Shown: positions 20,077-39,736 of the stretch, in pieces
Position numbering within the stretch: the stretch's first letter is position 1
Layout: each line of letters begins with the position of its first letter
Assembly: GCA_934182615.1 (NCBI GenBank)
Contig: CAKPRO010000009.1
Location: forward strand, 5,282-69,281
Reading direction: 5' to 3'
Source of the DNA: an uncultured Bacilli bacterium
GTDB lineage: Bacteria > Bacillota_I > Bacilli_A > RF39 > UBA660
DNA length: 64,000 nt
Translations under genes and position numbers: made by a program
Notes under the pieces: model-generated
What the model saw: only the letters and a program-made list of their open reading frames with translations
Databases searched by the model: none
Told to the model about the DNA's origin: nothing

Positions 20077-20122
20077 AGTCTCGTCAACTCTGAATTTTAG
20101 TTACCTATATTAAATTTTTATG

Positions 20123-21775
20123 TCACACTAAACTAATAAACCCTACTTTATCACTACTGTAATCATCATCTAAATCAGCACCAGCATATACAATACCAAC
20201 AACTTCTCTTTTTTTATTTAAAACCGGGCCACCACTCATTCCATGTTTTGGAGAATCTTTAGTTACCCAAAATTCTCTTCCAAGAAAAGTATCTTTACCA
20301 ATTATTTTGGTTTCTATAATTGAAATACTCGTCCTATCAAAGTCTACAAAGCCCGGATAACCAACTAAATATACAGTATCTCCCATCATAGGTTTATTTT
20401 TTGAAATGTTAAAAAACTTACTATTAAAATTAATATTTTTGATACATAAAATATCGGTCTTATAATTATTTTCCTCTATTTTATAATTCAAAAAAAGTTT
20501 ACTCGTTTTATTTTTTAAATAAAAGAAAGGTAAATTTCCATCATCAGGTATAATAGGAAACTGTCTTAAATATTGAGTGTCATTTTCATCATAAATAAAA
20601 TCTTTAATGGTAGTTTTATTTATTAAAACATGAGTTGAAGTATGCAATATATTATTTTTTATCAGAAATGCTGTACCTTGAGAATCTTCAGCTTCTGACT
20701 GTAAAACAAAACATCTATCTTCTGTATACTTTTGAATTTCCAATATACTATCAACATCAAACAGTTCAACGCTAAATAGCTCGTTAAATTCTTTAGCATA
20801 TTTTAAAAACATCTTATCATTATAACCTCTTACCATTTTTAAATAATTTAATTTTCCTTGTAGCAAATTAAACATTTTATATTTTGCATCCTTTTCAGTG
20901 TCAAATTTAAAATTTTTAAAATTCTTTTGAGCTGTTATTATAAAGCCATATTTTTTTATGGAATAAAGCATTGCGCGAACTTCTTTTATATATTTTTTAT
21001 TTAAATTTAATTTAGTATTTACTATTACACCTGTTACCTCTTGACGTAACATTTTTTTTGAAAGTTTAGTTTTTGCATTATTTACTTTAAATCCTGTATT
21101 ATAACCACCATTAATTATTTTGATTAATCTATCAGATAAAACTATTTCACTGGATTGTTTATATGCTATTTGTAAAGGAAATTTATCACTATTTGTAGAT
21201 ATTGTTATATCATCAGCATATCTACTATAAATACATCTATTTTTTTTTGATAAATGTTCTAATTCTTTATCCATTTGATAACATATAATATTAGATATTA
21301 TCGGTGATGTTGGGGCTCCTTGAGGCAATTTACCATCTTTACAAACTATTTTTGCAAGAAAAGTAGCTAAATGCCTATTGAAATTAAAAGGTTTACCCAT
21401 AAACATTCCACGAACTCTACCAAAATGTATTGTATCAAAAAAATTTTCTAAATCAATATTTAATACAAATCTTTTTCCTACATGTTGACTTGCATTAGTT
21501 ACACAACTTCTGTTTTTTATAAAACCATGTTGAACATCTAAAAAATCATAACAATCATATAATAATGTTGCTAATCTTTGTTGTATTACTTTTAATTCAA
21601 TTGTAGGCGCAGAAATTTTTCTTATACCGCCATTTTTTTTAGGAATTTCAAAGCTTATATAATTTTCTTCTTTTACAAATAAAATATAATTTAAATATCC
21701 TTTAGATATATTTAAAATGCTACATAAATCATCAACGCTATCAATCTCTAAAAATATATAATTTTTATGCAACAT
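20123..21775 (-). CDS. Retron-type reverse transcriptase fused to a C-terminal trypsin-like serine protease
   Basis: RT motifs: NASQH (NAxxH), QGAPTSP, RYADDITIS, EVTGVIVN (VTG). C-terminal H/D/S triad candidates: TSTHVL, TDILCIK, GMSGGPV. Start set at the ATG 6 nt after SD gaggtg. Confidence 0.8.
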   Translation of the reverse strand: MLHKNYIFLEIDSVDDLCSILNISKGYLNYILFVKEENYISFEIPKKNGGIRKISAPTIELKVIQQRLATLLYDCYDFLDVQHGFIKNRSCVTNASQHVGKRFVLNIDLENFFDTIHFGRVRGMFMGKPFNFNRHLATFLAKIVCKDGKLPQGAPTSPIISNIICYQMDKELEHLSKKNRCIYSRYADDITISTNSDKFPLQIAYKQSSEIVLSDRLIKIINGGYNTGFKVNNAKTKLSKKMLRQEVTGVIVNTKLNLNKKYIKEVRAMLYSIKKYGFIITAQKNFKNFKFDTEKDAKYKMFNLLQGKLNYLKMVRGYNDKMFLKYAKEFNELFSVELFDVDSILEIQKYTEDRCFVLQSEAEDSQGTAFLIKNNILHTSTHVLINKTTIKDFIYDENDTQYLRQFPIIPDDGNLPFFYLKNKTSKLFLNYKIEENNYKTDILCIKNINFNSKFFNISKNKPMMGDTVYLVGYPGFVDFDRTSISIIETKIIGKDTFLGREFWVTKDSPKHGMSGGPVLNKKREVVGIVYAGADLDDDYSSDKVGFISLV

Positions 21776-21789
21776 ATTCATCACCTCAG

Positions 21790-21937
21790 TGTAAAAAGGA
21801 CTCATACATTGTACTATTATATTAAATAATAAATAGTATAAGGTATATTAAACGAAATAATTAATTTATAATACCTAAATGTAACTAACATTTTTTTAAC
21901 CATGGCGAAACACTCATGAGGTGCAGTCCTTTTTACA
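21790..21937 (-). ncRNA. Candidate retron msr-msd
   Basis: 13-bp perfect inverted repeat, tgtaaaaaggact (21790-21802) / agtcctttttaca (21925-21937). It brackets ~120 nt with several hairpins, and a G follows the 5' arm on the RNA strand. The 3' arm ends 15 nt before the RT start. Confidence 0.45.
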
Positions 21938-22216
21938 AGATAATATATTAACATAGATTTAGGTCTTTTACAAGCTTTTGCCTACTCTTCCATAAGAATT
22001 TCTAATTTATAATTAATTTTCAATTATTATATTCTTGTCAGTTATTTCTTCATGAACTTTAATATCAACATTATACTTCCTATTGATACCTCTATTTCAT
22101 CTGCAGTAATATTAAGCACAAGTTCTTCACTTAATAACTTAATATCATTTGCCTCATTTTTCCAAATTTCTCTTAAATTTATTATTTTTTCTAACCTTCC
22201 TAAACTATAATCCTTT

Positions 22217-23266
22217 TTAATCCTTCAAAAATTCTAAATATCTGCTATATTGATCAACTAGTATATTTTTTATGTATTGTTCCATATATTCATAATCAGG
22301 ATTATTGTTTTTATCTACTGGTAACAAAATTTTTTCTTTACTAATTCTAAAATCATTTATTTCTCTATTAAAACTATATTTATTTCCTATTCTTGAAACT
22401 ATGGCTGTTAAAAATAAATAAATATACTTATTATACTTATTATTTTTTAGTGCTGTAATATGATCACTACCAATAAAATCATATTGATGATAAAAGGTGG
22501 CCCCAACTGAACCACTATTAGCGATAGTTAAACAATTATTAAATTTTTTTCCTTCTTTGTTACTAATAAAATTATCTACACCATTATTCATCATTGTTGA
22601 GGAAATGTACGGAATGTTTCCTGCTTTATGATTGCTCTTTTTTAATCTTTTTCCTCTTTCAATAATTGAAAATATACAATTAATATCAAATTCTTTCCAT
22701 TGTTTTTCTGATAATTCAAGGATTTGTTTATATTCAATATTTGATATACTTTTATTACAATATTTTTTCACCAAATCTAATTTATCGTCTAATATTTCAG
22801 CTATACTATTTTCCATGTATTGATAATTTACTGTTTCATCGTCATTTATGGGAAGAATAATTTTCAATTTAGACAAATCCTTACTTGATAACTGATTTCC
22901 ATATGAAAAATTATCTGTATTTGCCATAATTATAACTTTAAAATATTCAGCTAAGTTTTTATTTAAGGTATGTTCTTTTAATATTAATGCATGAACTTTC
23001 ATATCCAATGAAGCCTTATACGGATGATAAAAAACGCTACCCAAAAATGAAACACTTATAAAATTTTCATAAACTCTAAAATTAGGGTTACTTGACTCGC
23101 AATATGAATCAATACCATTATTTGTATCTCTAACTGTTATTCTAGGAATTGATCCTGGCTTTAATTCAGACTTATTTATATAAGCACCTGTTGGTACTTG
23201 ATTTTCAGTTGTTTCAAAAATATCACTTATTCTAAATATTTTCCATTTGATACCATTATCATTCAT
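22217..23266 (-). CDS. Restriction-modification specificity subunit (HsdS/BcgIB-like, two target-recognition domains)
   Basis: Two similar halves, each ending in a conserved helical spacer. Overlaps the upstream methylase gene by 8 nt. Confidence 0.8.
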   Translation of the reverse strand: MNDNGIKWKIFRISDIFETTENQVPTGAYINKSELKPGSIPRITVRDTNNGIDSYCESSNPNFRVYENFISVSFLGSVFYHPYKASLDMKVHALILKEHTLNKNLAEYFKVIIMANTDNFSYGNQLSSKDLSKLKIILPINDDETVNYQYMENSIAEILDDKLDLVKKYCNKSISNIEYKQILELSEKQWKEFDINCIFSIIERGKRLKKSNHKAGNIPYISSTMMNNGVDNFISNKEGKKFNNCLTIANSGSVGATFYHQYDFIGSDHITALKNNKYNKYIYLFLTAIVSRIGNKYSFNREINDFRISKEKILLPVDKNNNPDYEYMEQYIKNILVDQYSRYLEFLKD

Positions 23267-25172
23267 TCTTATCACCTTCGGTCTCAAATAAATATCCTCT
23301 TCCGTGAGTAATCATATTAATTTCAAATGTTAAATAATCAGCTATAGCGTTTTCAAAACAATCATTATTGGGAATTTCATCATTGAAATAAAAGTAAGAA
23401 TGTAACCATTCATCTTCCGCTTCAACAGTCGTTTCTACACAAAATTTAGTTGGAGCTTCTATTTTATCAAACCATACATCCAACAAATGTTGCTTTCTAT
23501 CCTTTGCACGTTCAGTTTCGACAAGCCCTTTGTGTTTTTGAACTTCAAATCCATCGTCTGAAAAATCAATGAATTTACATAATTTGTTTCTATCATGTGG
23601 TATACCTGCGGTAAAAATTGCAATACAAGGATTTGTTCCAACTCCATAAAAAGTATTTGTGTTTAGAGTAATTACTCCCTCTAAAGTGTGATGTAATAAT
23701 ATACTTTCTTTTATATTTTGTTCATTCTTATTTTTACCCGTCATTGTACTTTGAGGTACAATGACAATAACCTTACCGCCAACTACGATGCTGTCTAATA
23801 AATGTTCAACAAAGCTAAGTTCACATTTTTCAGGGCTTATTTTTCCCATTGAGTATGGGGGATTCATCATGCCTACTGTTGCACCCTTTAATTGTACTTT
23901 GCTAGAATCCTGTGCTAAAAAATCATCACATATTAGATTACTTTTCCCATCGCCACGCAAAATCATATTTGTAGTTGCAATAGTAAACATATATGGTTGA
24001 AGTTCAAAGCCATGTAGTTGGTTCCTTTTAATTGCCATCTTTTCCTGATTATTAGATGTTTTTCCAAGCATGTCGTGCATAGCTGAAACAAGGAATCCAG
24101 CCGTTCCACAGCATGGATCCAACACCACATCTGTAGATTTCAACTCTATTAAATCGCAAAATAAATTGCATATATGTTTTGGTGTTAAAACAATTCCCAA
24201 TGATTGCCCATCTCCACCAGAATAACTCATAAATTCTCCATAAAATCTACCCAAATAGTCTTCTGATGTCTGATTATATCTAATAGTTTTATATAGCTTG
24301 TTATATAAATATTCAGTATAAAATTTTAATGGGGTTTTACCTAAAATATCGTTTTTTTCATTCAAAATGACAGTGTCTTTTATTATAGCAAATTGTGATA
24401 AAAGTTTATCTTTCTTTGTTTCTGGAGATACTTGTGATCGATCTAAATTATCTCGTATTGCATTATAAATTTTCAAACCATCTGTTTTTAATTTGTCACC
24501 AATTAAATCGTCAATAGAGAAATTCTTATGTTCTATTTCTTTTAAAGCCAATAATATTCCACTTACAACCAAAGGCTTGTCTTTATCGCTTAAATTACCA
24601 TAATTTCTTAAATATTCATGCAATTCTTTTGCATCTTTTAGTATTTCTTCAGTCGTCTTTTCATCATCTGTGTTTTCCTTTAAAATTTCTCTAACATAAT
24701 ATTCATCAATATTATTCTCATTAAAAGAAATAAAACTTTCTACTTCCGGTAAATCTATAAAATATTCTCTACCATCTAAATATATTGGCTTTATGACGTG
24801 ATGTTTTTCATCTCCGCTAATTCCAAATGCAATAGCTTTTTTGTAATTAGTGTTTTCTAATATGTGATTTGCATAAAAATATGCCCCATTTAAGGCATAA
24901 TCAGTTATTGATGATACGCTTAAATTTAAAATACCATTTTCATCATATTTTGCTTGTTTATCTGTGGAATACTTGTCTTCAATTACTAAAACAAAATCTT
25001 TTACAACCCCTACATATTCTGGAAATCCCACATTACCTGTGCCTTTTTTTGATGCAGTTTTTAATGCATAATCTAATTCTTTAATATTGCTTCCTTGTGC
25101 ATCTAATGTTATTCCAGCATCTTTTAATAAATCATAAACCCACAAATCAGTTCTAACTTCTTTTTTTGCCAT
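23259..25172 (-). CDS. Fused PD-(D/E)xK-like nuclease plus gamma-class N6-adenine methyltransferase (BcgIA-like, type IIB candidate)
   Basis: N-terminus GFPEYVGVVKDFVLVIEDK (E...ExK), AdoMet motif VLDPCCGTAGFL, catalytic MMNPPY. There is no HsdR-like helicase gene anywhere in the window. Confidence 0.7.
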   Translation of the reverse strand: MAKKEVRTDLWVYDLLKDAGITLDAQGSNIKELDYALKTASKKGTGNVGFPEYVGVVKDFVLVIEDKYSTDKQAKYDENGILNLSVSSITDYALNGAYFYANHILENTNYKKAIAFGISGDEKHHVIKPIYLDGREYFIDLPEVESFISFNENNIDEYYVREILKENTDDEKTTEEILKDAKELHEYLRNYGNLSDKDKPLVVSGILLALKEIEHKNFSIDDLIGDKLKTDGLKIYNAIRDNLDRSQVSPETKKDKLLSQFAIIKDTVILNEKNDILGKTPLKFYTEYLYNKLYKTIRYNQTSEDYLGRFYGEFMSYSGGDGQSLGIVLTPKHICNLFCDLIELKSTDVVLDPCCGTAGFLVSAMHDMLGKTSNNQEKMAIKRNQLHGFELQPYMFTIATTNMILRGDGKSNLICDDFLAQDSSKVQLKGATVGMMNPPYSMGKISPEKCELSFVEHLLDSIVVGGKVIVIVPQSTMTGKNKNEQNIKESILLHHTLEGVITLNTNTFYGVGTNPCIAIFTAGIPHDRNKLCKFIDFSDDGFEVQKHKGLVETERAKDRKQHLLDVWFDKIEAPTKFCVETTVEAEDEWLHSYFYFNDEIPNNDCFENAIADYLTFEINMITHGRGYLFETEGDKNE

Positions 25173-25362
25173 AATACATATTCTCCTTCATAATTTTTTC
25201 TTCTATAGCCTCTAATACAAATTTATTAAAGCTATAATTTTTTCTTCCATTTTTCTTTTTTATTTTTTGAACATAATCTGAAATCTGAAAAAACAAATTC
25301 TTATCTAATCTTAATAAATAAGTTTCCTTTTTTTCATTCTCATTAAGATCTTGTTTTTTCAT
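25153..25362 (-). CDS. Small ribbon-helix-helix-like protein (possible controller of the RM operon)
   Basis: YLLRLDKNLFFQISDYV...SFNKFVLEAIEEKI looks like strand-helix-helix. Overlaps the methylase start by 20 nt. Confidence 0.4.
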   Translation of the reverse strand: MKKQDLNENEKKETYLLRLDKNLFFQISDYVQKIKKKNGRKNYSFNKFVLEAIEEKIMKENMYYGKKRS

Positions 25363-25520
25363 ATTTTCACCTTCTTTACTGTGATATCTTTATATCTTGA
25401 TATAATGATATCATATTTTTGAAATTTAATCAAGAGATTGGGATTATTCCTATAAAATAATTTTGCATAGAAACACAAATTCAGTGCTGGCCATGCAACA
25501 AACACTATTCTACTAACTAA

Positions 25521-25547
25521 AAACACTACCATTTCTGATAGTGTTAA
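25521..25547 (-). terminator. Hairpin aacacta/tagtgtt with a short U-run (weak terminator)
   Basis: 7-bp stem with a 10-nt loop. Lies between the junction promoter and the RHH gene. Confidence 0.35.
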
Positions 25548-25635
25548 TTACTTTAATAATATCTTTTTAATCTTAATAATCCATTTTTTTCCATAGTTAT
25601 TTGGTTTTAGTTTTTATACATTTGCTTTTTTTGGC

Positions 25636-25864
25636 CACCACCTGAAGTTATTATATCATAGTTTTTTTCCATATATGACTATATGATTATTTTTCTAATT
25701 CTATTTATATAATACTATTTCTCTATACTAAAATAATATTAGTATATAGTTATTGCTTATATATAATAGATGTAATAGGCATATTGTTATTAGACCCTAG
25801 GCTAATAACAACACTAATAAGACTTACATAGTAAGGCTTATAGTGAACATAATAAAATATATAT
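25636..25864 (-). repeat. Junction element J2: hairpin pair + extended -10 promoter + SD (direct repeat of 29853-30079)
   Basis: Aligns end to end with J3; the first 32 nt and last 45 nt are identical. TGaTATAAT on the minus strand (25650-25658). Hairpins at 25786-25809 and 25812-25855. Confidence 0.85.
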
Positions 25865-25866
25865 AA

Positions 25867-26170
25867 TTATTTATTATTAACTATCTCATCTAATTTACTT
25901 CTTATAATACTTTCTTCTCTACTACCATTAGTAGTTAATCTTATTAATGGTATATTATATTTAGATAGAATATCATTCTTTAATATATCTCTTTCTTTTT
26001 GTTTATTATCTTCTTTATGATATTTATATCCATCTACTTCTACCGCTAATAATGGTATTTTACTTATTTTATTATATATTAAGAAATCTATATGAGTATT
26101 ATGGTGAGAAGCATATTTTCTTTCTTCTTCTGTTAATAATGTCTTATCTTTTATTAATATATTTAAAATT
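25867..26170 (-). pseudogene. Start-less DUF2726-like fragment (about 100 codons)
   Basis: Hand translation gives ...HIDFLIYNKISKIPLLAVEVDGYKYHKEDNKQKERDILKNDILSKYNIPLIRL..., which matches the DUF2726 pattern. No ATG, GTG or TTG in frame. Begins right at the stop of the upstream gene. Confidence 0.5.
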
Positions 26171-26713
26171 TTATTTATGTTTTCTTTTATACAAGTATAC
26201 TCCTCCTGATATTACTCCTATACCTAAGATTGTGTTTAATAAACTATTACTATCCTTTTCATCTTCAATATTATTATCTTCAATATTTTTACTAGTGGAT
26301 ATAATGCAACTTCCATCATCAACCTCTGCTTCTGGATCATAGTTGTCTGCTGATGGATTTTTACATCCTAGTACATAATATTCACAGGTTCCGTCATCTT
26401 TATTTGCTGATGAATTATAGTTCTTTGCTGTTTCATCTGTGCATCCATATGTATAATAGATACAACTTCCATCATCTCTATTAGCACTAGAATTATAATT
26501 ACTTGCATTTTTGTCTGTGCACCCATAAATATAGGTAACTGTTGGTGTACATGTACAACTAGGACTTAAAGTACCATCATTACAAACCAATCTTCCAGAA
26601 CTACTACAGCCACTAACACCACCATGATGAGAACAACACCCTCTCGTTGCACTAACTTTTAATGGCATTAATAGTATAATGCACACTAAAATTACTATTA
26701 TTTTTTTCTTCAT
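26171..26713 (-). CDS. Secreted or membrane-anchored Cys-rich repeat protein
   Basis: Signal peptide, GCCSHHGGVSGC motif, 3x GC(T/K)D..A.NY(N/D)..A..DDG(S/T)C repeats, and a C-terminal TM segment plus KRKHK. Confidence 0.7.
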   Translation of the reverse strand: MKKKIIVILVCIILLMPLKVSATRGCCSHHGGVSGCSSSGRLVCNDGTLSPSCTCTPTVTYIYGCTDKNASNYNSSANRDDGSCIYYTYGCTDETAKNYNSSANKDDGTCEYYVLGCKNPSADNYDPEAEVDDGSCIISTSKNIEDNNIEDEKDSNSLLNTILGIGVISGGVYLYKRKHK

Positions 26714-26733
26714 TAAATATCACCTTACCACAA

Positions 26734-26779
26734 AAAAAGACGCAGCACAAAATCTATTAAATAGACCTGTACTAGCGTC
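26734..26779 (-). terminator. 46-nt hairpin terminator, copy 1 (near-identical to 29557-29603)
   Basis: aaaaagacgcagcacaaaatctattaaatagacctgtactagcgtc. On the minus strand, gacgc...gcgtc is followed by a run of seven T. Confidence 0.7.
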
Positions 26780-26875
26780 CTTATTTAATTATTTTTAATT
26801 CTTTTAATATTTTACCATGTTTTTGTTTACATTATCTTATTCTTTCTTTATTAATTTAAAATTTTGAATATTTTA

Positions 26876-27145
26876 TTATAGTTCATTAATTCCAGTAACT
26901 ATTTTGTTAACGACTTCAACTATACTATCATATACGACTTTTGAAATTTTATCATTAGAGCTATCAAAATCGGTAGACTTATTTATTTTAATAATATCAC
27001 CTTTTTTAAATTCCTTAAACAAAGCCTCATATAGTTTTTTACCATCCACATTTAGCGTACTTTTAGGAATTTCAAATATCTCCACATTTTCGCTTTTAAT
27101 AATATATTTGTCATTGTTATTATACATCGTATATATTTTTGTCAT
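26876..27145 (-). CDS. Small protein (89 aa) translationally overlapping the PHP-ATPase gene
   Basis: SD aaaggtgg before the ATG at 27145. Overlaps the upstream stop by 26 nt. No motif recognised. Confidence 0.5.
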   Translation of the reverse strand: MTKIYTMYNNNDKYIIKSENVEIFEIPKSTLNVDGKKLYEALFKEFKKGDIIKINKSTDFDSSNDKISKVVYDSIVEVVNKIVTGINEL

Positions 27146-29522
27146 ATCTTTTCCACCTTTCATTAATTGAAGCTATTCCACCTTCTATGTTATCGGCAAC
27201 AATTTTCAAAACATTACATTCTTCATCTTTATATTCAAGTGCACCATTTTGAATATATATTTTATCTTTTTCATCTTTACCCAAGAATATTACATTATCA
27301 ACATCTAAATTTACGATAAATTGTGGATTATGCGTTATCATAATAATTTGTCTATTCTTGCTCATATCATTAAAATCATTTAAAATATTTTTCTTTATGG
27401 ATGGTTGTGACACGTCATCTTCAGGTTGATCAATTATATATATTCTCTTATCATCAGTTTGGTTAGATATTAAATCAAAATAGATTCTAGAATTTAAACC
27501 TGATGATAATTCTTTTGTTACATCTTTATCTTTATCTTTGTTCCATTCATTTATTGCATTCTCAACAGAAAAAATATCGTTTATTTTATTATCTAATTCA
27601 TTTTTTAGATTTAATAACTTGTTATCGTAAGAAATTTCTTTACTTCTATTATTAAATTTATCTGGAATTGTATTTGGATCAATTGAATTTATATCTTTTA
27701 TACTTTTTCCTAATATTTCTTTAATTAAGTATATTAAATGATCATTTGATATTTCTTTTACCTTAGTTTTTGCGACGAATCTGTATTTTCCAACTATATT
27801 AAAGGATGTTGGTATTTTTTCTTCTTTGATATTTGGCTTATATTTAGTTTCTTTCCTACTCTTAATATAATAATTTATGATGTTTTCCGAAAAAATCTCC
27901 TTATTATTTTCATAATTTGATATTTTTTCTGTTTCATCCGTTTCTATTCTTTTTAGTTCTTTACCTTTTTTAGTGAACTCAGTATTGATTATATTGATTT
28001 TAGATATTTCAAGCAAATTTTGTTTATTTATATCGTTATATTTTGATATTAAAATTTTATAGTGGTCAACGCTATTTTTAATATACTCTTTATCTCCCTT
28101 CTCAAAGCAGTCATTATTCATTACTTCCAATAGCAATGAATTGATTGATTCAAGTTTTTCAATTATTTTATTTACTTCTTTTATTTTCAAATTAATATTG
28201 TTAATAATAGTATTAGTTATATTTTTAAAGCTTAGTGACTTTGAGTTTGAATCAATGATACATATACTAAAATCTATTATCTTATTGAATGCACTGGTTT
28301 TCTCTTCTTTATTTTTTAAAACTGAAATATAACTTTCAATTTCAGATTTATATTTTTTAATATATTTATTTACTGAAGGGGCAACAGGAAAAAAACTATT
28401 CAAGAAATTATCACTATTAAAGTTTTTATTTTCAAACATCTTTCTTATAGAGCCTTGTCCATTAAATTCAGAAATATTTGATTTTGGTATATGTGAATTG
28501 ATTTTTATATTTTTCTCATTCAAATACTCCTCATAACTATTTTTTATTTTATTATCATTTAAATAATTATAATCAGTTAACTTGTGAATTAATAGCGACT
28601 TTCCTATGGAATTATCACCTATAATAACATTGATTCCTTTAGAAAGTTTTATATTATGTTTATTTCCATTTATTTCTATATCTATACTATCCAAATATTT
28701 ATCTGTAACAGGGAAAAAGTTATTAACATAATTTATTCTTTTAGTGTTTGTCATAGCCATGGCTAAACCACGAAAGGTTGGTAAACATTTTAAATATGTA
28801 AATGAAAAATCATCGTTTTCCTCGGGATAATCGGCCCAAATATGGCAATCAGAACCTGTTATAAACTTCAATGTAATATCTTTATATTTTTCCCTGTTTC
28901 TTTCAATATAGTTTTTATTAAATATTTCGTTTATCTTTTTTTTAAATTCAAAGGCCTCAAAAAAATCCAAAAAGACCAATTCATCAAATTTTTCCTTTCC
29001 TAAACTCATGACATCATGATTTCTCGGCTCCTTGCTAGATAGGGTTGCTTTTTGATGGGCTATCATCACTACATTTAAATTAATTTCTTTTAAAATATCA
29101 AGATATTTACTTTCAGAAAATGAATTTAATTTGTTATTATCATACAATGGTTTTCCTTTATTTTTATCAAATATTTTACTTTGTATTTTACTTATTGCTT
29201 CTTCATCTGAATCATCAAATATTGTAATAACATGCAAAACTTTTTTATCATATGCCACCGAAAATTCAACTGCAGGAAAAACCTTTTTAATACTTCCTTT
29301 ATTCTCTTCATTCTTTAATCTTTTATATATATCAAAATCAAAGTTATCATGATCTGATATAGAGCACATATTTATTTTTCTTTCATTTAATTTTTCTATT
29401 AATAAATTTATGTTATCTATTGTCGATAAATCTACACGATCATCACTTTCTTTATGTTTTGACGCAAAAGAATGAATATGAAAATCCACTTTATTGCCTG
29501 TTTCAACTATCTTTTCAATCAT
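27120..29522 (-). CDS. PHP-domain phosphoesterase fused to an ABC/OLD-type ATPase (Ppl-like defence candidate)
   Basis: N-terminus DFHIHSFAS...SISDHDNF...AVEF (PHP). Walker A IIGDNSIGKS, Walker B IYIIDQPEDDVSQ, and IMITHNPQF. Confidence 0.65.
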   Translation of the reverse strand: MIEKIVETGNKVDFHIHSFASKHKESDDRVDLSTIDNINLLIEKLNERKINMCSISDHDNFDFDIYKRLKNEENKGSIKKVFPAVEFSVAYDKKVLHVITIFDDSDEEAISKIQSKIFDKNKGKPLYDNNKLNSFSESKYLDILKEINLNVVMIAHQKATLSSKEPRNHDVMSLGKEKFDELVFLDFFEAFEFKKKINEIFNKNYIERNREKYKDITLKFITGSDCHIWADYPEENDDFSFTYLKCLPTFRGLAMAMTNTKRINYVNNFFPVTDKYLDSIDIEINGNKHNIKLSKGINVIIGDNSIGKSLLIHKLTDYNYLNDNKIKNSYEEYLNEKNIKINSHIPKSNISEFNGQGSIRKMFENKNFNSDNFLNSFFPVAPSVNKYIKKYKSEIESYISVLKNKEEKTSAFNKIIDFSICIIDSNSKSLSFKNITNTIINNINLKIKEVNKIIEKLESINSLLLEVMNNDCFEKGDKEYIKNSVDHYKILISKYNDINKQNLLEISKINIINTEFTKKGKELKRIETDETEKISNYENNKEIFSENIINYYIKSRKETKYKPNIKEEKIPTSFNIVGKYRFVAKTKVKEISNDHLIYLIKEILGKSIKDINSIDPNTIPDKFNNRSKEISYDNKLLNLKNELDNKINDIFSVENAINEWNKDKDKDVTKELSSGLNSRIYFDLISNQTDDKRIYIIDQPEDDVSQPSIKKNILNDFNDMSKNRQIIMITHNPQFIVNLDVDNVIFLGKDEKDKIYIQNGALEYKDEECNVLKIVADNIEGGIASINERWKRYDKNIYDV

Positions 29523-29556
29523 ACTACTACTTCAACTCCTAACTTCTAGCTAATAT

Positions 29557-29603
29557 AAAAAGACGCAGCACAAAAATCTATTAAATAGACCTGTACTAGC
29601 GTC
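29557..29603 (-). terminator. 46-nt hairpin terminator, copy 2
   Basis: Differs from copy 1 by one extra A. Confidence 0.7.
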
Positions 29604-29667
29604 TTTCTTTAACTAATTTAAGTATATCAAATTATTTTTATTTAATCAATATATTTTGACAATTTTC

Positions 29668-29847
29668 TTATTCATCATCCTCAGAATAATAGTCATCATC
29701 TTCTAGTTCTTCTTCTTCAAAGTTAAATGAATCATACTTCTTTTCTTTTACTAATTCTTTTTGCCAATCTTCTAAATCATTATTATCTTTTTTATTATCA
29801 TCTTCTGTATCAGTAAATGCTTTTATTAAGTTCCATATTAAACACAT
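29668..29847 (-). CDS. Small acidic ORF, 59 aa (MCLIWNLIKAFTDTEDDNKKDN...EEEELEDDDYYSEDDE)
   Basis: Below the ORF-track cutoff. SD aggtggtg lies 7 nt upstream, and the junction promoter is directly upstream. Confidence 0.4.
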   Translation of the reverse strand: MCLIWNLIKAFTDTEDDNKKDNNDLEDWQKELVKEKKYDSFNFEEEELEDDDYYSEDDE

Positions 29848-29852
29848 AGTCT

Positions 29853-30079
29853 CACCACCTGAAGTTATTATATCATAGTTTTTTGTTATATATGACTATA
29901 TGCTTATTTTTCTACTCTTATTTATATAATTACTTCTCTATACTAAAATAATATTAGTATATATATCTACTGCTTATATATAATAGGTATCTTGGATACA
30001 TTTAATTAAGACAAGTTTACTTGGCTTAATTAAACACTAATAAGACTTACATAGTAAGGCTTATAGTGAACATAATAAA
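29853..30079 (-). repeat. Junction element J3 (complete copy): hairpin pair + TGnTATAAT promoter + SD
   Basis: See J2. Extended -10 at 29867-29875 (minus strand). Hairpins at 30001-30034 and 30035-30068. Confidence 0.85.
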
Positions 30080-30125
30080 GATAATATATAGGTATATTAA
30101 AACTAAGACTTGATATCTTAGTTTG

Positions 30126-30929
30126 TTATTTAGTTAATGTTAATGTTTTTATTTTAAATTCTTTAGTATCATAACCCCATGGATTAGATACTAATCTTAT
30201 ATTATTTATTATTATATCTTCTTCTTTATGATCATGACCATATATCCATACTGGTGATTTATATTCTTTAACTTCTGTATAGTAACAAGAGTTATTACCC
30301 CTACTATTACTTTTGTTTCTAAATGGTGGTACATGTGTTATTATTAAATCTATATTATTTGGTAAGTTATTATACCAAGATATGCTATCGTTATGTAGTT
30401 TTTGTATTTTATCTTTCTTAGATAATTCTGATAAGATAAATCTTGAATCATTCTGCATAGGATAGTTATATAGTTTATCTACTAATGTTACTGGTTTATA
30501 CCAAAGGGTATCTCCCGCTAATAAGAAGGTATTATAGGTATATAGTCCTTTAGTATTATTCGTTTTATCTAGTATGATTATATCGTTATTATCTTTAAAT
30601 ATTTCATTTAATCTATATACTTTATTCATACTATTATAGTTATATTCTTTAGCCATAGGATCAGTATAGATATATTTTATTACTGGTATATAGTATTCAT
30701 GATTACCTAGGACAAATATTACTTTTTTATAGTATTTTGAACATGAATATAATAGTTCACTCACTCTATTTATATCTTCATCGATATCTCCCGCTACTAC
30801 AAGGATATCTCCTTTTACTTGCATACTTATTTTATCTTGAACTAATTTATCTATTTTGGTTATGCTTTCATTTTTACTTATGTAGTGAGTTAAGTGTAAA
30901 TCAGATACGTAGTCAATGTTTAATTCCAT
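30126..30929 (-). CDS. Calcineurin-like metallophosphoesterase
   Basis: SDLHL, VVAGDI, LGNHEYY, THVPP and YGHDH motifs in the canonical order. Confidence 0.8.
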   Translation of the reverse strand: MELNIDYVSDLHLTHYISKNESITKIDKLVQDKISMQVKGDILVVAGDIDEDINRVSELLYSCSKYYKKVIFVLGNHEYYIPVIKYIYTDPMAKEYNYNSMNKVYRLNEIFKDNNDIIILDKTNNTKGLYTYNTFLLAGDTLWYKPVTLVDKLYNYPMQNDSRFILSELSKKDKIQKLHNDSISWYNNLPNNIDLIITHVPPFRNKSNSRGNNSCYYTEVKEYKSPVWIYGHDHKEEDIIINNIRLVSNPWGYDTKEFKIKTLTLTK

Positions 30930-30983
30930 GGTATTTTTCCTTTCTAGATGCTTATATTATATAGAAAGATGCAAATTATGTCA

Positions 30984-31015
30984 AATAAAAAACCATTGAC
31001 ACTTTTGCCTGTCAA
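30984..31015 (-). terminator. Hairpin ttgaca...tgtcaa plus U-run
   Basis: Read on the minus strand, 3' of the 31033 gene. Confidence 0.5.
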
Positions 31016-31032
31016 CAGTTTCTGCGGATAAG

Positions 31033-31782
31033 TTATTTATTATTACATTTCCTTATAAATTCTTTTTCGTGTTCTTTTAAATAGTTATAACTTCCTTTAA
31101 TAGCGGTATCTATACTATTATTTTTATATATACTTGTTATTTTATCTAGTAAATTTATATTATCTATTTCTACATTATAAAAGATATCATAGCATTTAAA
31201 CTTATGTTTATATATTTTTTGTATGCCGTCACTATTTAGTATTGGGTCTATGACTATTTCACTTAAGTACCATAACAAACTTGGGCTATCAAAATCTTCA
31301 TACTTCCAATTTGGATATATTTCTTTACATTTCTCAAAGAAAAGGAAATGACATAATTCATGCATACAGGTATCTATTAAATCTTCTTTATTTTTCTTAT
31401 GAATATCAAAGGCTTTTTCTTTAATGTATCTAGGACATACTGGTATTAGTCCTATTCCTACTGATATTTCTTTATATTCTTTTGGCCACTTTATATTAAA
31501 GTAATTACTTATTTCTAACATATATTTATCATTATATTCATTCCAGATAGTGGTATATTCTTCTCTCAAGTTATTATTTTCTTTTATAAAGTTATTATAT
31601 CTATCTTGAATTATGTCTTTAATATTATCTTCTTTGGTAAGTCTTTTTAATTCTGGATATAGGAATAATGTTCCTTCTTTTACTGATAATATGTTATCAG
31701 TATCTTTAAGTGTCCATGATAGTATGTCAGATGTTTCTTCAAGAGTTAAATATTTAAATTTTAATTTTGGTATGTTATTCAT
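31033..31782 (-). CDS. HExxH-motif protein of unknown function
   Basis: CMHELCHFLFFEK. Confidence 0.5.
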   Translation of the reverse strand: MNNIPKLKFKYLTLEETSDILSWTLKDTDNILSVKEGTLFLYPELKRLTKEDNIKDIIQDRYNNFIKENNNLREEYTTIWNEYNDKYMLEISNYFNIKWPKEYKEISVGIGLIPVCPRYIKEKAFDIHKKNKEDLIDTCMHELCHFLFFEKCKEIYPNWKYEDFDSPSLLWYLSEIVIDPILNSDGIQKIYKHKFKCYDIFYNVEIDNINLLDKITSIYKNNSIDTAIKGSYNYLKEHEKEFIRKCNNK

Positions 31783-31803
31783 ATTTCCTCCTATTTAATT
31801 ATA

Positions 31804-33405
31804 TCATATTTTGTTTACTTTATCACGATAATCATCATAATTACCAATATATCTAGTGATGTTTTTATTTTTTATTTCTATTATACTAGTAGCTATTTTA
31901 TTTATGAAATATCTATCATGAGATACAAATAATATAGTACCAGTAAACTCCTTTAGTGACTCTTCAAGCATTTCTCTTGTATCAATATCAATGTGATTAG
32001 TGGGTTCATCTAGAATTAAGAAGTTATAAGAATCTTGAATTAGACAGAATATTTTTAATCTTACTTTTTCTCCTCCAGATAAGTATTTTATTTTTTTATG
32101 AATGTTTTCTCCTGCAAAGAGATATTTGAATAAAGCACTTCTTAAATATTGTTCTGGTCCAATGAAATATTTTCTGGCTTCTTCTAGTACTGATAAATTA
32201 ATATCTTCAAACTCGATCTCTTGAGGAATATAACCTATCTTGATATTACTTCCTAGTTTTATACTATTATTTCCTTTTAATATTTCTTTGATTAGAGTTG
32301 ATTTACCGACTCCATTATCTCCGACTAGACATAGTCTATCTTGATATTTAATACTTAGATTAAGATTATTAAATATTTCTTTAGTACCATAAGATAGATT
32401 TAGATTATTTATTGTTAATACATCTTTTCCTGACCTACTAGCGGTATCAAAAGTTATATTTAGTTTTTTCTTGTCTTCTGGTTTATCTAACTTTTCTAGT
32501 TTTTCTAATCTTTTTTCGATATTGGCAGCTCTTCTAAAGAATATTTCTCCACCACTTGGTCCACAAAGCCTGCCATATTCTTTTAATCTTTTGATACTAT
32601 TTTCCATAGCGGTTATTTGTTTTTGTTGGTCTTTATAGTTTTTTAATTCTAGTAATAGTCTATTTTCACTTTCTTTAATATAGTAACTATAATTGCCATG
32701 ATATACTTCTATTCCTCTTTTGGTTAATAAATATACTTTGTTTATGACATTATCCATGAAATAGCGGTCATGTGATACTAGTATTATTGTACCTTTATAG
32801 TTCTTTAATGTTTTTTCTAACCAAATCATTTTATTTATATCTAAATGGTTAGTGGGTTCATCTAATAATAAGACATCTGGTTCTTGTAATAATAATCTTA
32901 TTAGAGATATGATGGTTTTTTCTCCTCCAGATAGGGTATTGAAATTTCTATTTAATATTTCTTCAGTTATATTAAATACTGGTAGTATTTTTTGAATCTT
33001 TGTTTCGTATTCATATCCTCCTAGCGAGATAAACTTCTCTTGCAGATTCATATACTTTGTTATTACTTTATAATCTTCAGTTAAGAGTTTATCTTCATAT
33101 CTTTCTAATTTTTCTTTTAGTTCTATTATTTCTTTAAAGGCACTATTTATATAGTCTTTTACTATTATATCTTTTTTTTCAGGTATTTGACTTAAATAGC
33201 CTATACTTATATTATTTCTTATTGAAAGGGAACCGGAATCTATACTTTCTTGGCCTGCGATTATTTTTAGTATAGTACTCTTTCCACTTCCATTTGTTCC
33301 AATTAAACCTACTTTTTCTCCTTTTTGTACTGTTACGTCTATATTATTTAATACTAAGTCAAAACCAAATGACTTACATACTTTACTTATATTTATATCT
33401 ATCAT
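31804..33405 (-). CDS. ABC-F family ATPase (two ABC cassettes, no TM domain); ribosome-protection type candidate
   Basis: Walker A GTNGSGKST and GDNGVGKST, signatures LSGGEK (twice), and a ~80-aa charged interdomain linker. Start at the ATG after SD gggagga. Confidence 0.85.
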   Translation of the reverse strand: MIDINISKVCKSFGFDLVLNNIDVTVQKGEKVGLIGTNGSGKSTILKIIAGQESIDSGSLSIRNNISIGYLSQIPEKKDIIVKDYINSAFKEIIELKEKLERYEDKLLTEDYKVITKYMNLQEKFISLGGYEYETKIQKILPVFNITEEILNRNFNTLSGGEKTIISLIRLLLQEPDVLLLDEPTNHLDINKMIWLEKTLKNYKGTIILVSHDRYFMDNVINKVYLLTKRGIEVYHGNYSYYIKESENRLLLELKNYKDQQKQITAMENSIKRLKEYGRLCGPSGGEIFFRRAANIEKRLEKLEKLDKPEDKKKLNITFDTASRSGKDVLTINNLNLSYGTKEIFNNLNLSIKYQDRLCLVGDNGVGKSTLIKEILKGNNSIKLGSNIKIGYIPQEIEFEDINLSVLEEARKYFIGPEQYLRSALFKYLFAGENIHKKIKYLSGGEKVRLKIFCLIQDSYNFLILDEPTNHIDIDTREMLEESLKEFTGTILFVSHDRYFINKIATSIIEIKNKNITRYIGNYDDYRDKVNKI

Positions 33406-33418
33406 AATATTCCTCCCA

Positions 33419-33590
33419 TCAAAAAAAGTTATATGAATGTATTGCATCCATATAACTTCTATTTATATATATAGATGCAGGCACGACAAAAACTCACACC
33501 CACATCTCATTTTTTTTACTTTAATTTTTGATGAGATAAAGGTGTGATATTTATAGTAAACATGATTACATTACCTACATATTTATACAT
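33419..33590 (-). promoter_or_regulatory. Leader-peptide attenuator of the ABC-F gene
   Basis: Terminator aagttatatg (33426-33435) / catataactt (33449-33458) plus a seven-T run, just before the SD. Alternative hairpin gcatc.atata / tatat.gatgc (33444-33480). Upstream hairpin 33495-33546 overlaps the leader ORF stop. Confidence 0.65.
33516..33590 (-). CDS. Leader peptide, 24 aa (MYKYVGNVIMFTINITPLSHQKLK)
   Basis: SD GGAGGG lies 7 nt upstream. The stop sits in the loop of the first leader hairpin. Confidence 0.45.
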   Translation of the reverse strand: MYKYVGNVIMFTINITPLSHQKLK

Positions 33591-33839
33591 AAATATCCCT
33601 CCATTTATAATATATTATAGTTTTTTACTTTTGTCAATTGTTTTTACACTATAAGCCATTTGTCTTGCTAGTGTTATTTGGAGTCTTGGGTCTCCAAATA
33701 AGTATTAATTATACTTATTATATATAAGTATGAAATATATACTTAAAGTAGTTTATTATTGGTATTTTTTTTGTTATTTTGAGTATAATAATAATGCAAT
33801 ATACTTGACTTTTTATAATAGTTATAGTATCATTGTATT

Positions 33840-33954
33840 ACCGGAGAGAAATCTCGTCAGGTCGATAGCTCAATGTCGATTTTATTAAATTAAGTGTATG
33901 TTAAGTACACCGCTTGAGTTGGGGAGAGACTACTAGATAGTCTCTTTTCTTTTT
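33840..33954 (+). ncRNA. Candidate ~110-nt small RNA convergent with the DUF3800 gene
   Basis: TTGACT-17 nt-TATCAT (33805-33833), then agagacta/tagtctct hairpin plus tttcttttt (33925-33954). No plus-strand ORF downstream. Confidence 0.25.
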
Positions 33955-34681
33955 ATGGAAATAATAGTTTATGATCGATAATATCAATATCAGAATCAAT
34001 ATTTGATAATGCTCTTCTTCTGGTAGTGCCTGCTATTAAATCTGCTGCTTGCACTAAGTAACTCTTACCTGAATCTTGATATGTTAATCTTATTTCTAAT
34101 TTTCCATATAATATATTTTTATATTTTATATCATAATTAAAATTAGATATTCCATGTAGTAATTCTTCAGTTAGGCCATCTTTTAAATTATAATAACCAT
34201 TACTTTTTGTAGATTGTTCATCTATATTTATTATTAATCTCACATTTTTATGTGGGTTTATTTTTTTATCTTTTATTAATTCTTCTATGGTACTTTTAAT
34301 TAGTCTTCTTATTGTGTAATCTATGTATCTTCCTTTTGATGCTTTATTATTTATAATATGATTATATACTTTTGTATTATTTATTACTAGGGCAATAGTA
34401 TAATATTTACTTATGTAGTTCATAAGTCTTCTTTTATGACCTTTCTTGATATTTGTATTTTTTATTTCTTTACATTTTTTAGTACATTCTCCTTTTGTTT
34501 GTCCGCAGTAGGAACATTTTATCTCATTTATTATTTGGCGATACTGAGTTATAAATTTATCTTTTTCTTGTTTTGATAAAAAGACTATTCCTGCATATAC
34601 TGATACTTTTTCTTTTTTTGTTAATTTACCTGAATCATCTAAATTTATATATATTTCTTGATATTCTTCTTTTTTGTTCAT
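33953..34681 (-). CDS. DUF3800-family protein
   Basis: N-terminal IYINLDDSGKL and C-terminal LVQAADLIAG match the DUF3800 signature as I recall it. Start after SD gaagggag. Confidence 0.65.
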   Translation of the reverse strand: MNKKEEYQEIYINLDDSGKLTKKEKVSVYAGIVFLSKQEKDKFITQYRQIINEIKCSYCGQTKGECTKKCKEIKNTNIKKGHKRRLMNYISKYYTIALVINNTKVYNHIINNKASKGRYIDYTIRRLIKSTIEELIKDKKINPHKNVRLIINIDEQSTKSNGYYNLKDGLTEELLHGISNFNYDIKYKNILYGKLEIRLTYQDSGKSYLVQAADLIAGTTRRRALSNIDSDIDIIDHKLLFP

Positions 34682-34830
34682 ATAAGTGCTCCCTTCAATT
34701 GTTTTAATGTTTATTATAGCATGTACTTTTAATATTGTCATTAGGTTTTAAGTAATTTTGTTTATCAACAATATATGTGGATATAAGAAAAACTATAGAC
34801 ATAAATCTATAGCTTATATAAATACTTTTA

Positions 34831-34912
34831 TTTCAGAGCCATTTGGCCCAGTAAATATTTTTGAAAGACTTTTGGCTTTCAAAAACCTCAAACAATGTAA
34901 TGTGAGAGGGAT
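34831..34912 (+). repeat. Hairpin pair + GAACAA..GTGTGAGAGG box (copy f, first hairpin degenerate)
   Basis: tttgaaAGACttttGGCTttcaaa (34860-34883). About 90 nt aligns with 40193-40280. Confidence 0.7.
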
Positions 34913-34915
34913 ATA

Positions 34916-35341
34916 TTACCTTCTACTTTTTCCTTTAGAAGATAATAGTTCTTCTCTTAAATATCTATAATATTCAATACAATTAACATATTTATTTTCT
35001 TTTTCATTAAATATCCATATAGCAGTTAAATCTTCTAACGAGATAGCTCCCATTTGACCATCTTGTACTTTGGTATAAGGTGCTTCTAGTACTGGTCTTT
35101 TATCGTAGTAAAATAATTTATCTCCACCTCTAGTCCAAAATAATTCATTATTATGACCACCTTTTACTTTATCTTTACTTCTTGCATATCCACTAGTTAT
35201 AATATCTTCTACTTGATCCATACCGGTTACTCTATATACAAAATTATCATTTGTCTTCATAGCAATAGGACTATCTTTCCCAAAAGCTAATTCTCGGACA
35301 AATACTCTATTTCTAGTAGTTTCTATTCTATCGTCTTCCAT
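34916..35341 (-). CDS. Hypothetical protein (141 aa)
   Basis: ORF separated by a 2-nt gap from the upstream gene. No motif recognised. Confidence 0.45.
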   Translation of the reverse strand: MEDDRIETTRNRVFVRELAFGKDSPIAMKTNDNFVYRVTGMDQVEDIITSGYARSKDKVKGGHNNELFWTRGGDKLFYYDKRPVLEAPYTKVQDGQMGAISLEDLTAIWIFNEKENKYVNCIEYYRYLREELLSSKGKSRR

Positions 35342-35343
35342 AT

Positions 35344-35718
35344 TTACTCCTTTTCTATAGTAGTTCTACCACTTATTCTATTATCACTATCTTTAATCCA
35401 AAGATAATATTTTTTATATGTAAAGTAATTACTCTCTACTTTGTTATTTTCTATTTTATTCCAGCATAATGAATCTATACTGGGAACACTCTTAGTTGTT
35501 TTTAGACAGTATTCAGTTGAATCTCCTGTTGTTGTTATTATAAGTTTATTATTTTCTTTAGTAATACTTTCTATTTTAGCTATCATATTTTCATTAGGTT
35601 TAGCATAATACTGATTATTATCACTATCTGGCAAGATATTTTTTGCTGCAATGAAACTAAATACTGATAAGACAAGAATGCCACCAAGTACTATGAATGT
35701 ACTATTATTATTTTTCAT
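35344..35718 (-). CDS. Small secreted or membrane-anchored protein (124 aa)
   Basis: N-terminal hydrophobic segment. Overlaps the ATPase stop. Confidence 0.5.
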   Translation of the reverse strand: MKNNNSTFIVLGGILVLSVFSFIAAKNILPDSDNNQYYAKPNENMIAKIESITKENNKLIITTTGDSTEYCLKTTKSVPSIDSLCWNKIENNKVESNYFTYKKYYLWIKDSDNRISGRTTIEKE

Positions 35719-38323: not shown

Positions 38324-38335
38324 CTTTTTACTCCT

Positions 38336-39630: not shown

Positions 39631-39736
39631 AGTTTCTCCTTTGCTACTTTATTTAATTATATCATATTTTGTCGTATTTGTTTGTAAAAAAATGATATTT
39701 TTATTTTTAATGGGAAAATTATATTAGGTGTTAGAT

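Follow-up and report, generated by a model that had tools for sequence, protein, structure and literature searches.

The window analyzed here is a 64,000-nt stretch of contig CAKPRO010000009.1, from an uncultured Bacilli bacterium, and our subject is a pair of direct repeats within it, each of about 228 bp, that stand on either side of a 4.4-kb set of gene cassettes. The window is part of a bacterial chromosome of ~25% GC that encodes RNase J, UvrA, a PASTA kinase and a LysM amidase, with nearly all of its genes on the minus strand and with defense genes dense at ~4-35 kb. Contigs identical or near-identical to it come from human-gut metagenomes, and the relatives found in a GTDB scan are uncultured 'Tenericutes/Bacilli' metagenome-assembled genomes, including 'Clostridium sp. 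CAG:302', 'Firmicutes bacterium CAG:321' and the 1.46-Mb chromosome CP091726.1. The related contigs and loci that were compared with the window carry L-numbers (L002 to L052).

Anatomy of the two repeats

Read on the minus strand from the 3' end of the upstream gene, each repeat presents the same series of elements, namely hairpin H2, hairpin H1, a spacer of 15-16 nt, a conserved tail, the palindromes PAL1 and PAL2, a predicted extended -10 promoter element, TGATATAAT, and a Shine-Dalgarno sequence (SD), AGGTGGTG. The promoter of this series is termed P1 below, and H1 comes in two types, A and B.

25636-25864, minus strand: repeat copy A, in the order H2, H1A, tail, PAL1, PAL2, extended -10, SD
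29853-30079, minus strand: repeat copy B, in the order H2, H1B, tail, PAL1, PAL2, extended -10, SD
25812-25845: H2 of copy A, CACT[A]ATA-AGAC-TTAC ata GTAA-GGCT-TAT-AGTG, 34 nt, with a bulged A and an A.G mismatch
30035-30068: H2 of copy B, identical in sequence to that of copy A and invariant in all orthologues
25784-25811: H1 of A type (H1A), TTGTTATT-AGAC-ccta-GGCT-AATAACAA, 38.1 bits with the covariance model
30001-30034: H1 of B type (H1B), TTTAATTA-AGAC-AAG ttta CTT-GGCT-TAATTAAA, 24.4 bits with the covariance model
25756-25769 (copy A) and 29973-29986 (copy B): conserved tail, CTATTATATATAAG on the minus strand, which is CTTATATATAATAG on the plus strand
25724-25746 (copy A) and 29939-29961 (copy B): operator-like palindrome PAL1, TATACTAA-N7-TTAGTATA
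25670-25685 (copy A) and 29887-29902 (copy B): palindrome PAL2, CATATAgtcaTATATG, just upstream of the -10 box
25650-25658 and 25636-25643, minus strand: P1 of copy A, extended -10 and SD
29867-29875 and 29853-29860, minus strand: P1 of copy B, extended -10 and SD

An earlier note on this DNA had described the two copies as aligning end to end with identical ends, and this is borne out by an alignment and by a repeat finder (families D5 and D7): the copies are ~85% identical overall and agree in every base over 32 nt at the low-coordinate end and ~45 nt at the high-coordinate end, and three internal 21-28-mers occur exactly twice each in the window where 0.00-0.01 occurrences are expected. Its statement that the H1 stems differ and still pair perfectly is also correct, since the hairpins gttattAGACcctaGGCTaataac (copy A) and tttaattaAGACaagtttacttGGCTtaattaaa (copy B) have 8 perfect flanking pairs each, and folding is predicted on either strand (z -2.1 to -5.4). 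The AGAC and GGCT that the note had placed at the loop apex are indeed kept, but they form a 4-position segment of the stem (A-T, G-C, an A.G mismatch and C-G), above which H1B stacks three further pairs (AAG/CTT). The extended -10 element and SD that it reported are present and show no variation across about 10 haplotypes, although the strand has to be corrected to minus. H1 abuts H2 directly in both copies. The tail, 15-16 nt from the foot of H1, recurs after the 13866/13898 hairpin pair elsewhere in the window, PAL1 is also found alone upstream of other cargo genes, and PAL2, as read from the sequence, is conserved among orthologous haplotypes.

The two copies stand in front of different genes.

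29668-29847, minus strand: 59-aa acidic small ORF (MCLIWNLIKAF...; MCLIWNLIKAFTDTEDDNKKDN...), the anchor of the hotspot described below
27120-29522, minus strand: 800-aa protein with a PHP domain and an AAA ATPase (TrlF / Spaf_1101 / Ppl-like), cargo of the hotspot
22217-25362, minus strand: operon for a 69-aa protein, HsdM and HsdS, downstream of copy A
20123-21805, minus strand: type XI retron reverse transcriptase fused to a trypsin-like protease (PADLOC, 7e-157)

From the SD of copy B it is 5 nt to the ATG of the 59-aa ORF. The SD of copy A is followed by a 4-codon mini-ORF, a terminator-like hairpin (25522-25545), and then the 69-aa protein, which looks like a ribbon-helix-helix (RHH) protein by eye and matched nothing in family searches, together with hsdM and hsdS. 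A hydrophobic 57-aa ORF (25359-25532) overlaps this leader terminator and is called as a gene in no contig; the HsdM/HsdS block has no HsdR gene nearby. Judging from its position, the spacer of 410 nt upstream of the retron reverse transcriptase (21806-22216) should hold the msr/msd noncoding RNA (ncRNA).

A hairpin family with a conserved mismatch

The hairpins of the two repeats belong to a larger family. The window has 8 occurrences of the core AGAC-N4-GGCT where 0.26 would be expected, and when loops of 3-11 nt are allowed about 17 hairpins are found, all of them intergenic and mostly in tandem pairs 27-34 nt apart; family members make up 15 of the 52 strong hairpins of the window, and every family match there lies between ORFs. 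When sequences were selected by the 8-nt core only, from 564 kb of the window and its relatives, at least 8 of the 10 flank positions were complementary in 24 of 36 distinct sequences. Paired flanks were found around none of the 16 cores that form a perfect palindrome (0/12 for AGAC..GTCT and 0/4 for AGCC..GGCT), and around 5 of 8 cores of the A.A variant, AGAC..GACT. The purine.purine mismatch (A.G or A.A) is part of the motif, because perfect cores lack the paired flanks that the mismatched ones have. Pairing cells amount to 90.3% in 28 core-selected sequences compared with 65.9% in shuffles, a value that none of 500 shuffles reached, all 8 variable stem pairs vary on both sides, and slid controls drop to 30-57%. 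The stem below the core is 8 bp almost without exception, with a fixed stem length of ~12 positions in all. The orthologues of H1B mostly read AGCT...ATCT where the window has AGCC...GTCT, a C-G to T-A swap (in the plus-strand view mostly AGAT...AGCT, hence a compensated change), while the mismatch stays C.T, or C.C in L011.

The earlier note had proposed a covariance model and a scan of relatives, and these bring further copies with the compensatory pattern: 61 matches in the close clade, H1A and H1B among them, and 0 in four distant relatives with 54-55% protein identity. The family is restricted to one clade, the hairpins being present in genomes of the L029-L037, L041 and L042 types and absent from those of the L038-L040 and L043 types, and the feature is more general than that note described. 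As to its argument that covariation within one genome speaks for selection on a fold, such selection is evident from the pairing statistics of the family but not from a comparison of recently duplicated copies. H1A and H1B are separate members, each conserved at 92-97% in other species, and since each type is kept across species the difference between them lies between family members, not within one repeat, and the A/B duplication is old, the two types being paralogues of long standing. An exact 21-mer of H2 is present in at least 120 metagenome stretches, with 45 of 122 copies in unrelated contexts. There, too, H2 precedes a second hairpin that shares its core, and the conserved tail comes next. 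The second hairpin falls into at least 10 stem classes that are mutually compensated (e.g., TTTAATTA, TTAAATTA, TTAGATTA and TTATATTA). The window and the close-clade loci hold 1.2-1.7 family members per 10 kb, which would come to roughly 200 in a genome of 1.4 Mb.

The hairpin arms are T-rich on the 5' side and A-rich on the 3' side. The family has no match in Rfam and is apparently undescribed. Retron ncRNA, type I/III toxin-antitoxin RNAs, K-turns, ANTAR dual hairpins and inverted DNA-uptake pairs were set aside informally on their anatomy, from general knowledge, and a literature search for the PhREPS of phytoplasmas found nothing. A permissive RNA-family scan of 25300-30200 gave one snoRNA match, judged to be due to chance.

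Mosaic modules, a defense hotspot and gene gain or loss

The ~228-bp repeat had been taken as a single unit, which it is not. Mapping of the sub-elements by blastn-short in the window, 33 related loci and 122 metagenomic H2 copies shows a mosaic in which H2, H1, the tail, PAL1 and P1 recur independently. Four further features of the window are needed here, two of which contain D16, a repeated leader with a long hairpin, and one of which contains a second predicted promoter, P2.

29555-29649, minus strand: P2 (TTGATT-17-TGaTATACT) and the D16 leader, whose long hairpin and T-run immediately precede the 800-aa gene
26735-26795, minus strand: second D16 copy, upstream of a 180-aa gene, bracketing with the first a block of the 800-aa and a 95-aa gene
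25880-26165, minus strand: remnant of a DUF2726-like gene that has no start codon, its 3' flank being the A-type twin hairpin
19936-20089, minus strand: third, partial copy of the repeat, an SD-like box and ~24 codons of the small ORF (20012-20089), after the retron reverse transcriptase gene

The arrangement H2-H1B-PAL1-P1-small ORF-P2-D16 constitutes what we call the platform. H2-H1A-PAL1-P2-D16 forms internal junctions in L031, L042 (twice) and ~9 metagenome copies, H2-H1B-PAL1-P2-D16 was seen in one copy, and the remaining arrangements are H2-H1A-PAL1, PAL1-P2-D16, and PAL1 alone before other cargo. The arrangement of window copy A, H2-H1A-PAL1-P1, was met in this species only: its first ~148 nt in gene orientation are 93-97% identical in L030, L031, L034 and L042, where P2-D16 stands instead of P1. 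The A-type copies of other species likewise follow the 3' end of a DUF2726-like gene, and the junction at the remnant in the window is found again in L042; the DUF2726 label is a reading of the translation, and the Pfam match in L014 that supports it is weak. P1 itself precedes three non-homologous units, which are the small ORF, a 257-aa gene and the leader of the RHH and restriction-modification (R-M) genes.

Homologues of the 59-aa ORF form about 197 clusters of 52-100 aa (mostly 59-60 aa) at 64-98% identity and belong to no family in Pfam, NCBIfam or PADLOC. In every context that was fetched the ORF lies downstream of an ABC-F gene, a 249-aa gene and a metallophosphatase and upstream of cargo that differs, the order at the platform being metallophosphatase, module, 59-aa ORF, D16 leader and variable cargo. 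In all close-clade loci the small ORF is preceded by a counterpart of copy B, conserved at 92-96%. The cargo includes AAA_15 with DUF4435 (PARIS-like) followed by GmrSD and type I R-M; two unknown genes with a KAP NTPase, an integrase and methyltransferases; AbiTii with a full type I R-M system; Ymh with DUF3644; and, in L011, PDC-M48B (6e-124) as the next gene. L011 is 95.8% identical to window positions 29528-40165, and the homology ends at the start codon of the 800-aa gene (~29528). The left flank and the platform are kept across strains and about 11 GTDB species while the defense cargo differs, and the right flank, a two-component system, is confirmed for this species only. By these comparisons copy B is the conserved platform of a chromosomal defense hotspot in uncultured gut Bacilli/'Tenericutes' of the CAG:302/CAG:321 type. 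A literature search for RF39-type defense hotspots found nothing.

D16 is conserved in sequence directly upstream of unrelated defense cargo, and homology between strains often ends in or just after it. At copy B it offers a second SD after the hairpin and U-run, and then the 800-aa gene begins; further examples are at 7190-7325 in L012 and 19350-19485 in L042, among others. It has no Rfam match and is a candidate attenuator or riboregulator, or a small RNA. The block of the 800-aa and 95-aa genes between the two D16 copies is missing in L042, which has the small ORF, D16 and the 180-aa gene in succession. The repeat is itself a site of insertion. Strains of the L012 type have the 257-aa gene after the SD, with the last 30-75 nt of the repeat duplicated beyond that gene in front of the small ORF, and in strains of the L021 type two genes are inserted at repeat positions ~167-183. 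In the third, partial copy the start of the small ORF is fused to another C-terminus, which yields a 46-aa paralogue (19936-20076, minus strand).

Other members of the hairpin family in the window are also associated with the presence or absence of genes.

34817-34885: twin-hairpin repeat, left copy (repeat families D12 and D19)
40187-40253: twin-hairpin repeat, right copy
13858-13915: twin hairpin, the 13866/13898 pair (repeat family D4), with a degenerate copy at 8209-8294
33654-33701, plus strand: twin-hairpin element in which one hairpin has the A.A mismatch, ~130 nt ahead of the DUF3800-I RNA
45946-46000: twin hairpin downstream of uvrA
42654-42708 and 2066-2132: twin hairpins of the same family

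The first two, direct repeats of ~95 nt, bracket a 5.4-kb segment (34886-40186) with genes for a 141-aa and a 124-aa protein, a P-type ATPase, a 373-aa zinc-ribbon protein and a 148-aa protein. This segment is missing in L015 (~1000-1100), L016, L029 (7399-7458) and L041 (~5819-6070), and L015 has in its place a single hybrid hairpin unit, TTTCAGAGAC|TGGCTTTCAAAA, from a deletion between two 12-nt cores. L041 also lacks three genes (3.3 kb) between the pairs at 42654-42708 and 45946-46000; these genes (42706-45864, minus strand) are tandem paralogues of 342-356 aa without a family match (D2 and D3), and they are replaced in L029. In the opposite direction, a 411-aa gene that the window does not have is inserted in L052 (6040-7740, compared with window positions 13780-13960) exactly where the window has the 13866/13898 pair. 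On either side of this gene stands a copy of the spacer, ~235 bp long and in direct orientation, which includes a promoter-like box, TGATATACT, and an SD; what one of the two copies lacks is exactly the 58 nt of the twin hairpin, and the join is ambiguous by the triplet TTA. These cases are suggestive of recombination at or through the repeats. Synteny breaks in L002 and L003 were considered as further hairpin events and rejected: the breaks are not at hairpins, and one of them is a deletion within the ABC-F ATPase gene (window 32074-33303; 7250-7468 in L002/L003) that leaves a 117-aa ORF in place of 547 aa in some strains and apparently lies between the two homologous ABC domains (repeat families D8 and D20).

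The remaining features of note in the window are as follows.

6595-7842, minus strand: ApeA-HEPN, in a second small defense cluster (4365-7842)
5504-6493, minus strand: AbiD-like gene, in the same cluster
33953-34741, minus strand: DUF3800 gene
33833-33957, plus strand: DUF3800-I RNA (Rfam, 65.6 bits against a gathering score of 44.2)

An orphan response-regulator receiver gene (3772-4200) adjoins the AbiD/ApeA-HEPN cluster, and five direct repeats of ~153-174 nt at 2208-2982 (family D1) are the LysM domains of the amidase gene (2209-3606). The DUF3800-I RNA, on the strand opposite to the DUF3800 gene, converges on the 3' end of that gene, and the terminator-like hairpin at 33921-33949 belongs to it; it is the only known RNA family in an Rfam scan of the window and lies elsewhere than the repeats. 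No tRNA or tmRNA was found in the window. A phage origin was rejected, with one weak match in a phage collection and housekeeping genes that mark a bacterial chromosome. L011 (IMGVR_UViG_3300045988_183079) comes from a viral collection, but since it is collinear with the chromosomal window at 29.5-40.2 kb and carries housekeeping-type genes, such as the P-type ATPase, its viral label is probably wrong or reflects the defense island.

Interpretation and known systems

We propose, with moderate confidence, that the repeat is a reused boundary-plus-promoter module whose hairpin half is drawn from a lineage-specific, structure-selected family and which heads two defense operons, and that the repeat exists because such a module has been reused before non-homologous operons of this kind. 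The first part of the module would be a ~110-nt twin-hairpin element (H2, H1 and the tail CTATTATATATAAG), one of a set of lineage-specific extragenic palindromes in which an AT-rich lower stem of ~8 bp, free in sequence but complementary, carries a fixed core (A-T, G-C, purine.purine mismatch, C-G). The second would be the operator-like PAL1, and the third the predicted promoter P1 with its strong SD. Copy B would drive the 59-aa ORF, then the P2-D16 leader and then the defense cargo that the strain happens to have, whereas copy A would be a recombinant in which the A-type twin hairpin, normally found after a DUF2726 cassette, has been joined to PAL1 and P1; the block that it heads today comprises the RHH, type I R-M and type XI retron genes. 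We infer that a host factor recognizes the hairpins through their structure and mismatch, with the hairpins as boundary elements between transcription units, that PAL1 and P1 give neighboring defense operons a common control, and that the repeated modules supply homology for cassette gain and loss. A protein-recognized boundary element joined to a reused promoter is the most likely function of the hairpins as judged from their sequence.

Several points weigh against this proposal. No binding protein, recombinase or transposase was identified in the annotated genes of the window and loci. Wobble pairs number 14 for G.T and 12 for A.C, favoring neither strand, so that a DNA fold and an RNA fold are not told apart. 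The invariance of H2 in the metagenome set is a consequence of the exact-match search. The two repeats do bracket the 4.4-kb cassette, as the earlier note had it, but no strain without the cassette was found, the contexts of the 800-aa, 69-aa and response-regulator genes being identical in gene order. The link between hairpins and indels is only suggestive because operon-sized indels fall in inter-operon spacers anyway, and the association may be incidental.

The combination of a kept structure, a free sequence and a conserved mismatch is also the logic of integron attC sites, and the twin hairpins might accordingly be attC-analogous sites for a structure-specific recombinase, with cassettes captured and lost and the direct repeats as attL/attR-like ends. 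The variable presence of segments bracketed by twin-hairpin or D16 direct repeats, the single unit at the empty site and a wobble symmetry compatible with a DNA substrate all fit this idea. We consider it unlikely, however, as R''/R' boxes occur in none of 104 hairpins, an integrase is found neither in the window nor on the platform (Phage_integrase is met only within some cargo), homologous recombination is a better fit for repeats of 95-235 bp that include promoters, hairpins of this kind also stand after housekeeping genes (uvrA, for example), and one indel is bounded by inverted rather than direct pairs. We also give little credence to an integron-like capture of defense cassettes in this low-GC lineage, in which the twin hairpins, and possibly D16, would be attachment sites for a recombinase or HUH nuclease encoded elsewhere that recognizes a hairpin with the purine.purine mismatch, and in which the promoter, small ORF and leader of the platform would express the captured cassette. 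Being multi-copy, clade-restricted and extragenic, the twin hairpin and tail could instead represent a non-autonomous mobile element resembling miniature inverted-repeat transposable elements (MITEs), palindrome-associated transposable elements (PATEs) or REPINs, which are built on repetitive extragenic palindromes (REPs), with a transposase elsewhere (e.g., a Y1 HUH enzyme) and an outward promoter-like tail. One pair of paralogous spacers differs by exactly the 58-nt unit, the join being ambiguous over 3 nt (TTA), the pairs at 13866 and 42689 look related by descent (about 75% in a manual comparison), and IS200/IS605 enzymes and REP-associated tyrosine transposases (RAYTs) typically recognize hairpins with conserved irregularities (PMC2817692). 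Such an element is nevertheless doubtful when the stems diverge between copies far beyond any known MITE or REPIN, when there are no terminal inverted repeats, conserved flanking target or GT(A/G)G head and no transposase in the 64-kb window or the locus gene tables, and when the single presence/absence case equally fits the slippage deletion of a palindrome.

If the fold is one of RNA, the unit might be a small structured RNA or an intercistronic signal for RNA processing or stability (RNase III-type or 3'-end protection), with the core as the protein contact. The element is always co-directional with an adjacent transcription unit, the stem length is fixed at about 12 positions, the two hairpins abut directly, and a perfect TATAAT lies on the opposite strand, 15-16 nt from the foot of H1 and at a conserved spacing. 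REP-like hairpins stabilize upstream mRNA in enterobacteria. We hold this reading to be improbable, too, since G.U wobble is enriched on neither strand, Rfam has no match and the putative small RNA would be without a terminator. Less probable still are ordinary intrinsic terminators of the upstream operons that were multiplied by a simple recent segmental duplication. Most copies do follow the 3' end of a co-directional gene, although the element at 33654-33701 lies upstream of an RNA gene, and when the repeats are read in gene orientation the U-rich 5' arm of H1 comes after H2. The canonical T-run terminators of the same genome (1419-1459, 25522-25545 and D16) look different, however, a consensus terminator scan does not flag the hairpins, 3' arms are A-rich, and a T-rich tail follows just 5 and 25 of the 104 hairpins in the two orientations. 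This explanation also leaves the conserved destabilizing mismatch unexplained, copies in L015 and L041 lie between divergent genes, and both the A and the B type are kept in other species, so that the duplication is old.

The hairpin family fits none of the definitions of REPs, attC sites or terminators, and its pattern of conservation is unusual, with a 4-position core and an obligate mismatch above a stem that is free in sequence. This combination points to a structure-specific factor in a large group of uncultured, genome-reduced bacteria of the human gut. The fixed platform, comprising a predicted promoter, a 59-aa acidic peptide and a leader with a terminator, makes it easy to search gut metagenomes for new anti-phage systems and offers a candidate mechanism for the common control of defense genes, and with repeat-bounded segments that are present or absent in nature the shuffling of accessory genes without obvious mobile elements becomes testable.

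Among known systems the family is similar in its ecology to REPs and the bacterial interspersed mosaic elements (BIMEs) that they form. Both are clustered, extragenic and lineage-restricted imperfect palindromes at operon boundaries whose palindromy is kept by compensatory change. REPs reach more than 100 copies per genome, and the family would be comparably abundant if its density in the window and the close-clade loci holds genome-wide. REPs occur at rearrangement junctions. In every defining sequence feature the family is different. The GT(A/G)G head that is part of the REP definition used for comparison (PMC2817692) is present in only 12 and 3 of the 104 hairpins in the two orientations, the hairpin arms are AT-rich (GC 0.21) whereas REPs are GC-rich, adjacent hairpins point in the same direction in 11 of 11 cases (0 opposite) whereas REPs alternate, and the stem sequence is free with only the 4-position core fixed. 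No RAYT is encoded in the 64-kb window or the locus gene tables, and the host belongs to a low-GC Bacilli/'Tenericutes' lineage and is not a proteobacterium. As regards MITEs and PATEs, there is the one precise presence/absence case with its TTA ambiguity; stem sequences fall short of near-identity, and neither terminal inverted repeats nor a conserved target accompany them. With integron attC sites, including those of the VCR (Vibrio cholerae repeat) type, the hairpins share the precedence of structure over sequence, the conserved unpaired or mismatched positions and the punctuation of a one-way array of accessory cassettes. They differ in the missing R'' (RYYYAAC) and R' (GTTRRRY) boxes, in having no integron integrase or attI platform (Phage_integrase occurs only in L012-type cargo), in modules that carry their own predicted promoters, and in being found beside housekeeping genes as well.

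The promoter half of the module resembles the promoter reuse and putative mobile promoters described by Nijveen, Matus-Garcia and van Passel (PMC3575422), in that nearly the same region of PAL1, P1 and SD stands before non-homologous genes both within the genome and in its relatives. Here, however, the predicted promoter is joined to a twin-hairpin element and lies inside a defense hotspot. As in the core defense hotspots of Pseudomonas aeruginosa (PMC10250203) and the defense islands of E. coli (PMC10121019), conserved flanks surround strain-variable anti-phage systems without obvious mobile-element machinery; the locus described here differs from these in that a regulatory platform of promoter, 59-aa acidic ORF and terminator-bearing leader would feed the cargo, and in that internal junction repeats separate its modules.

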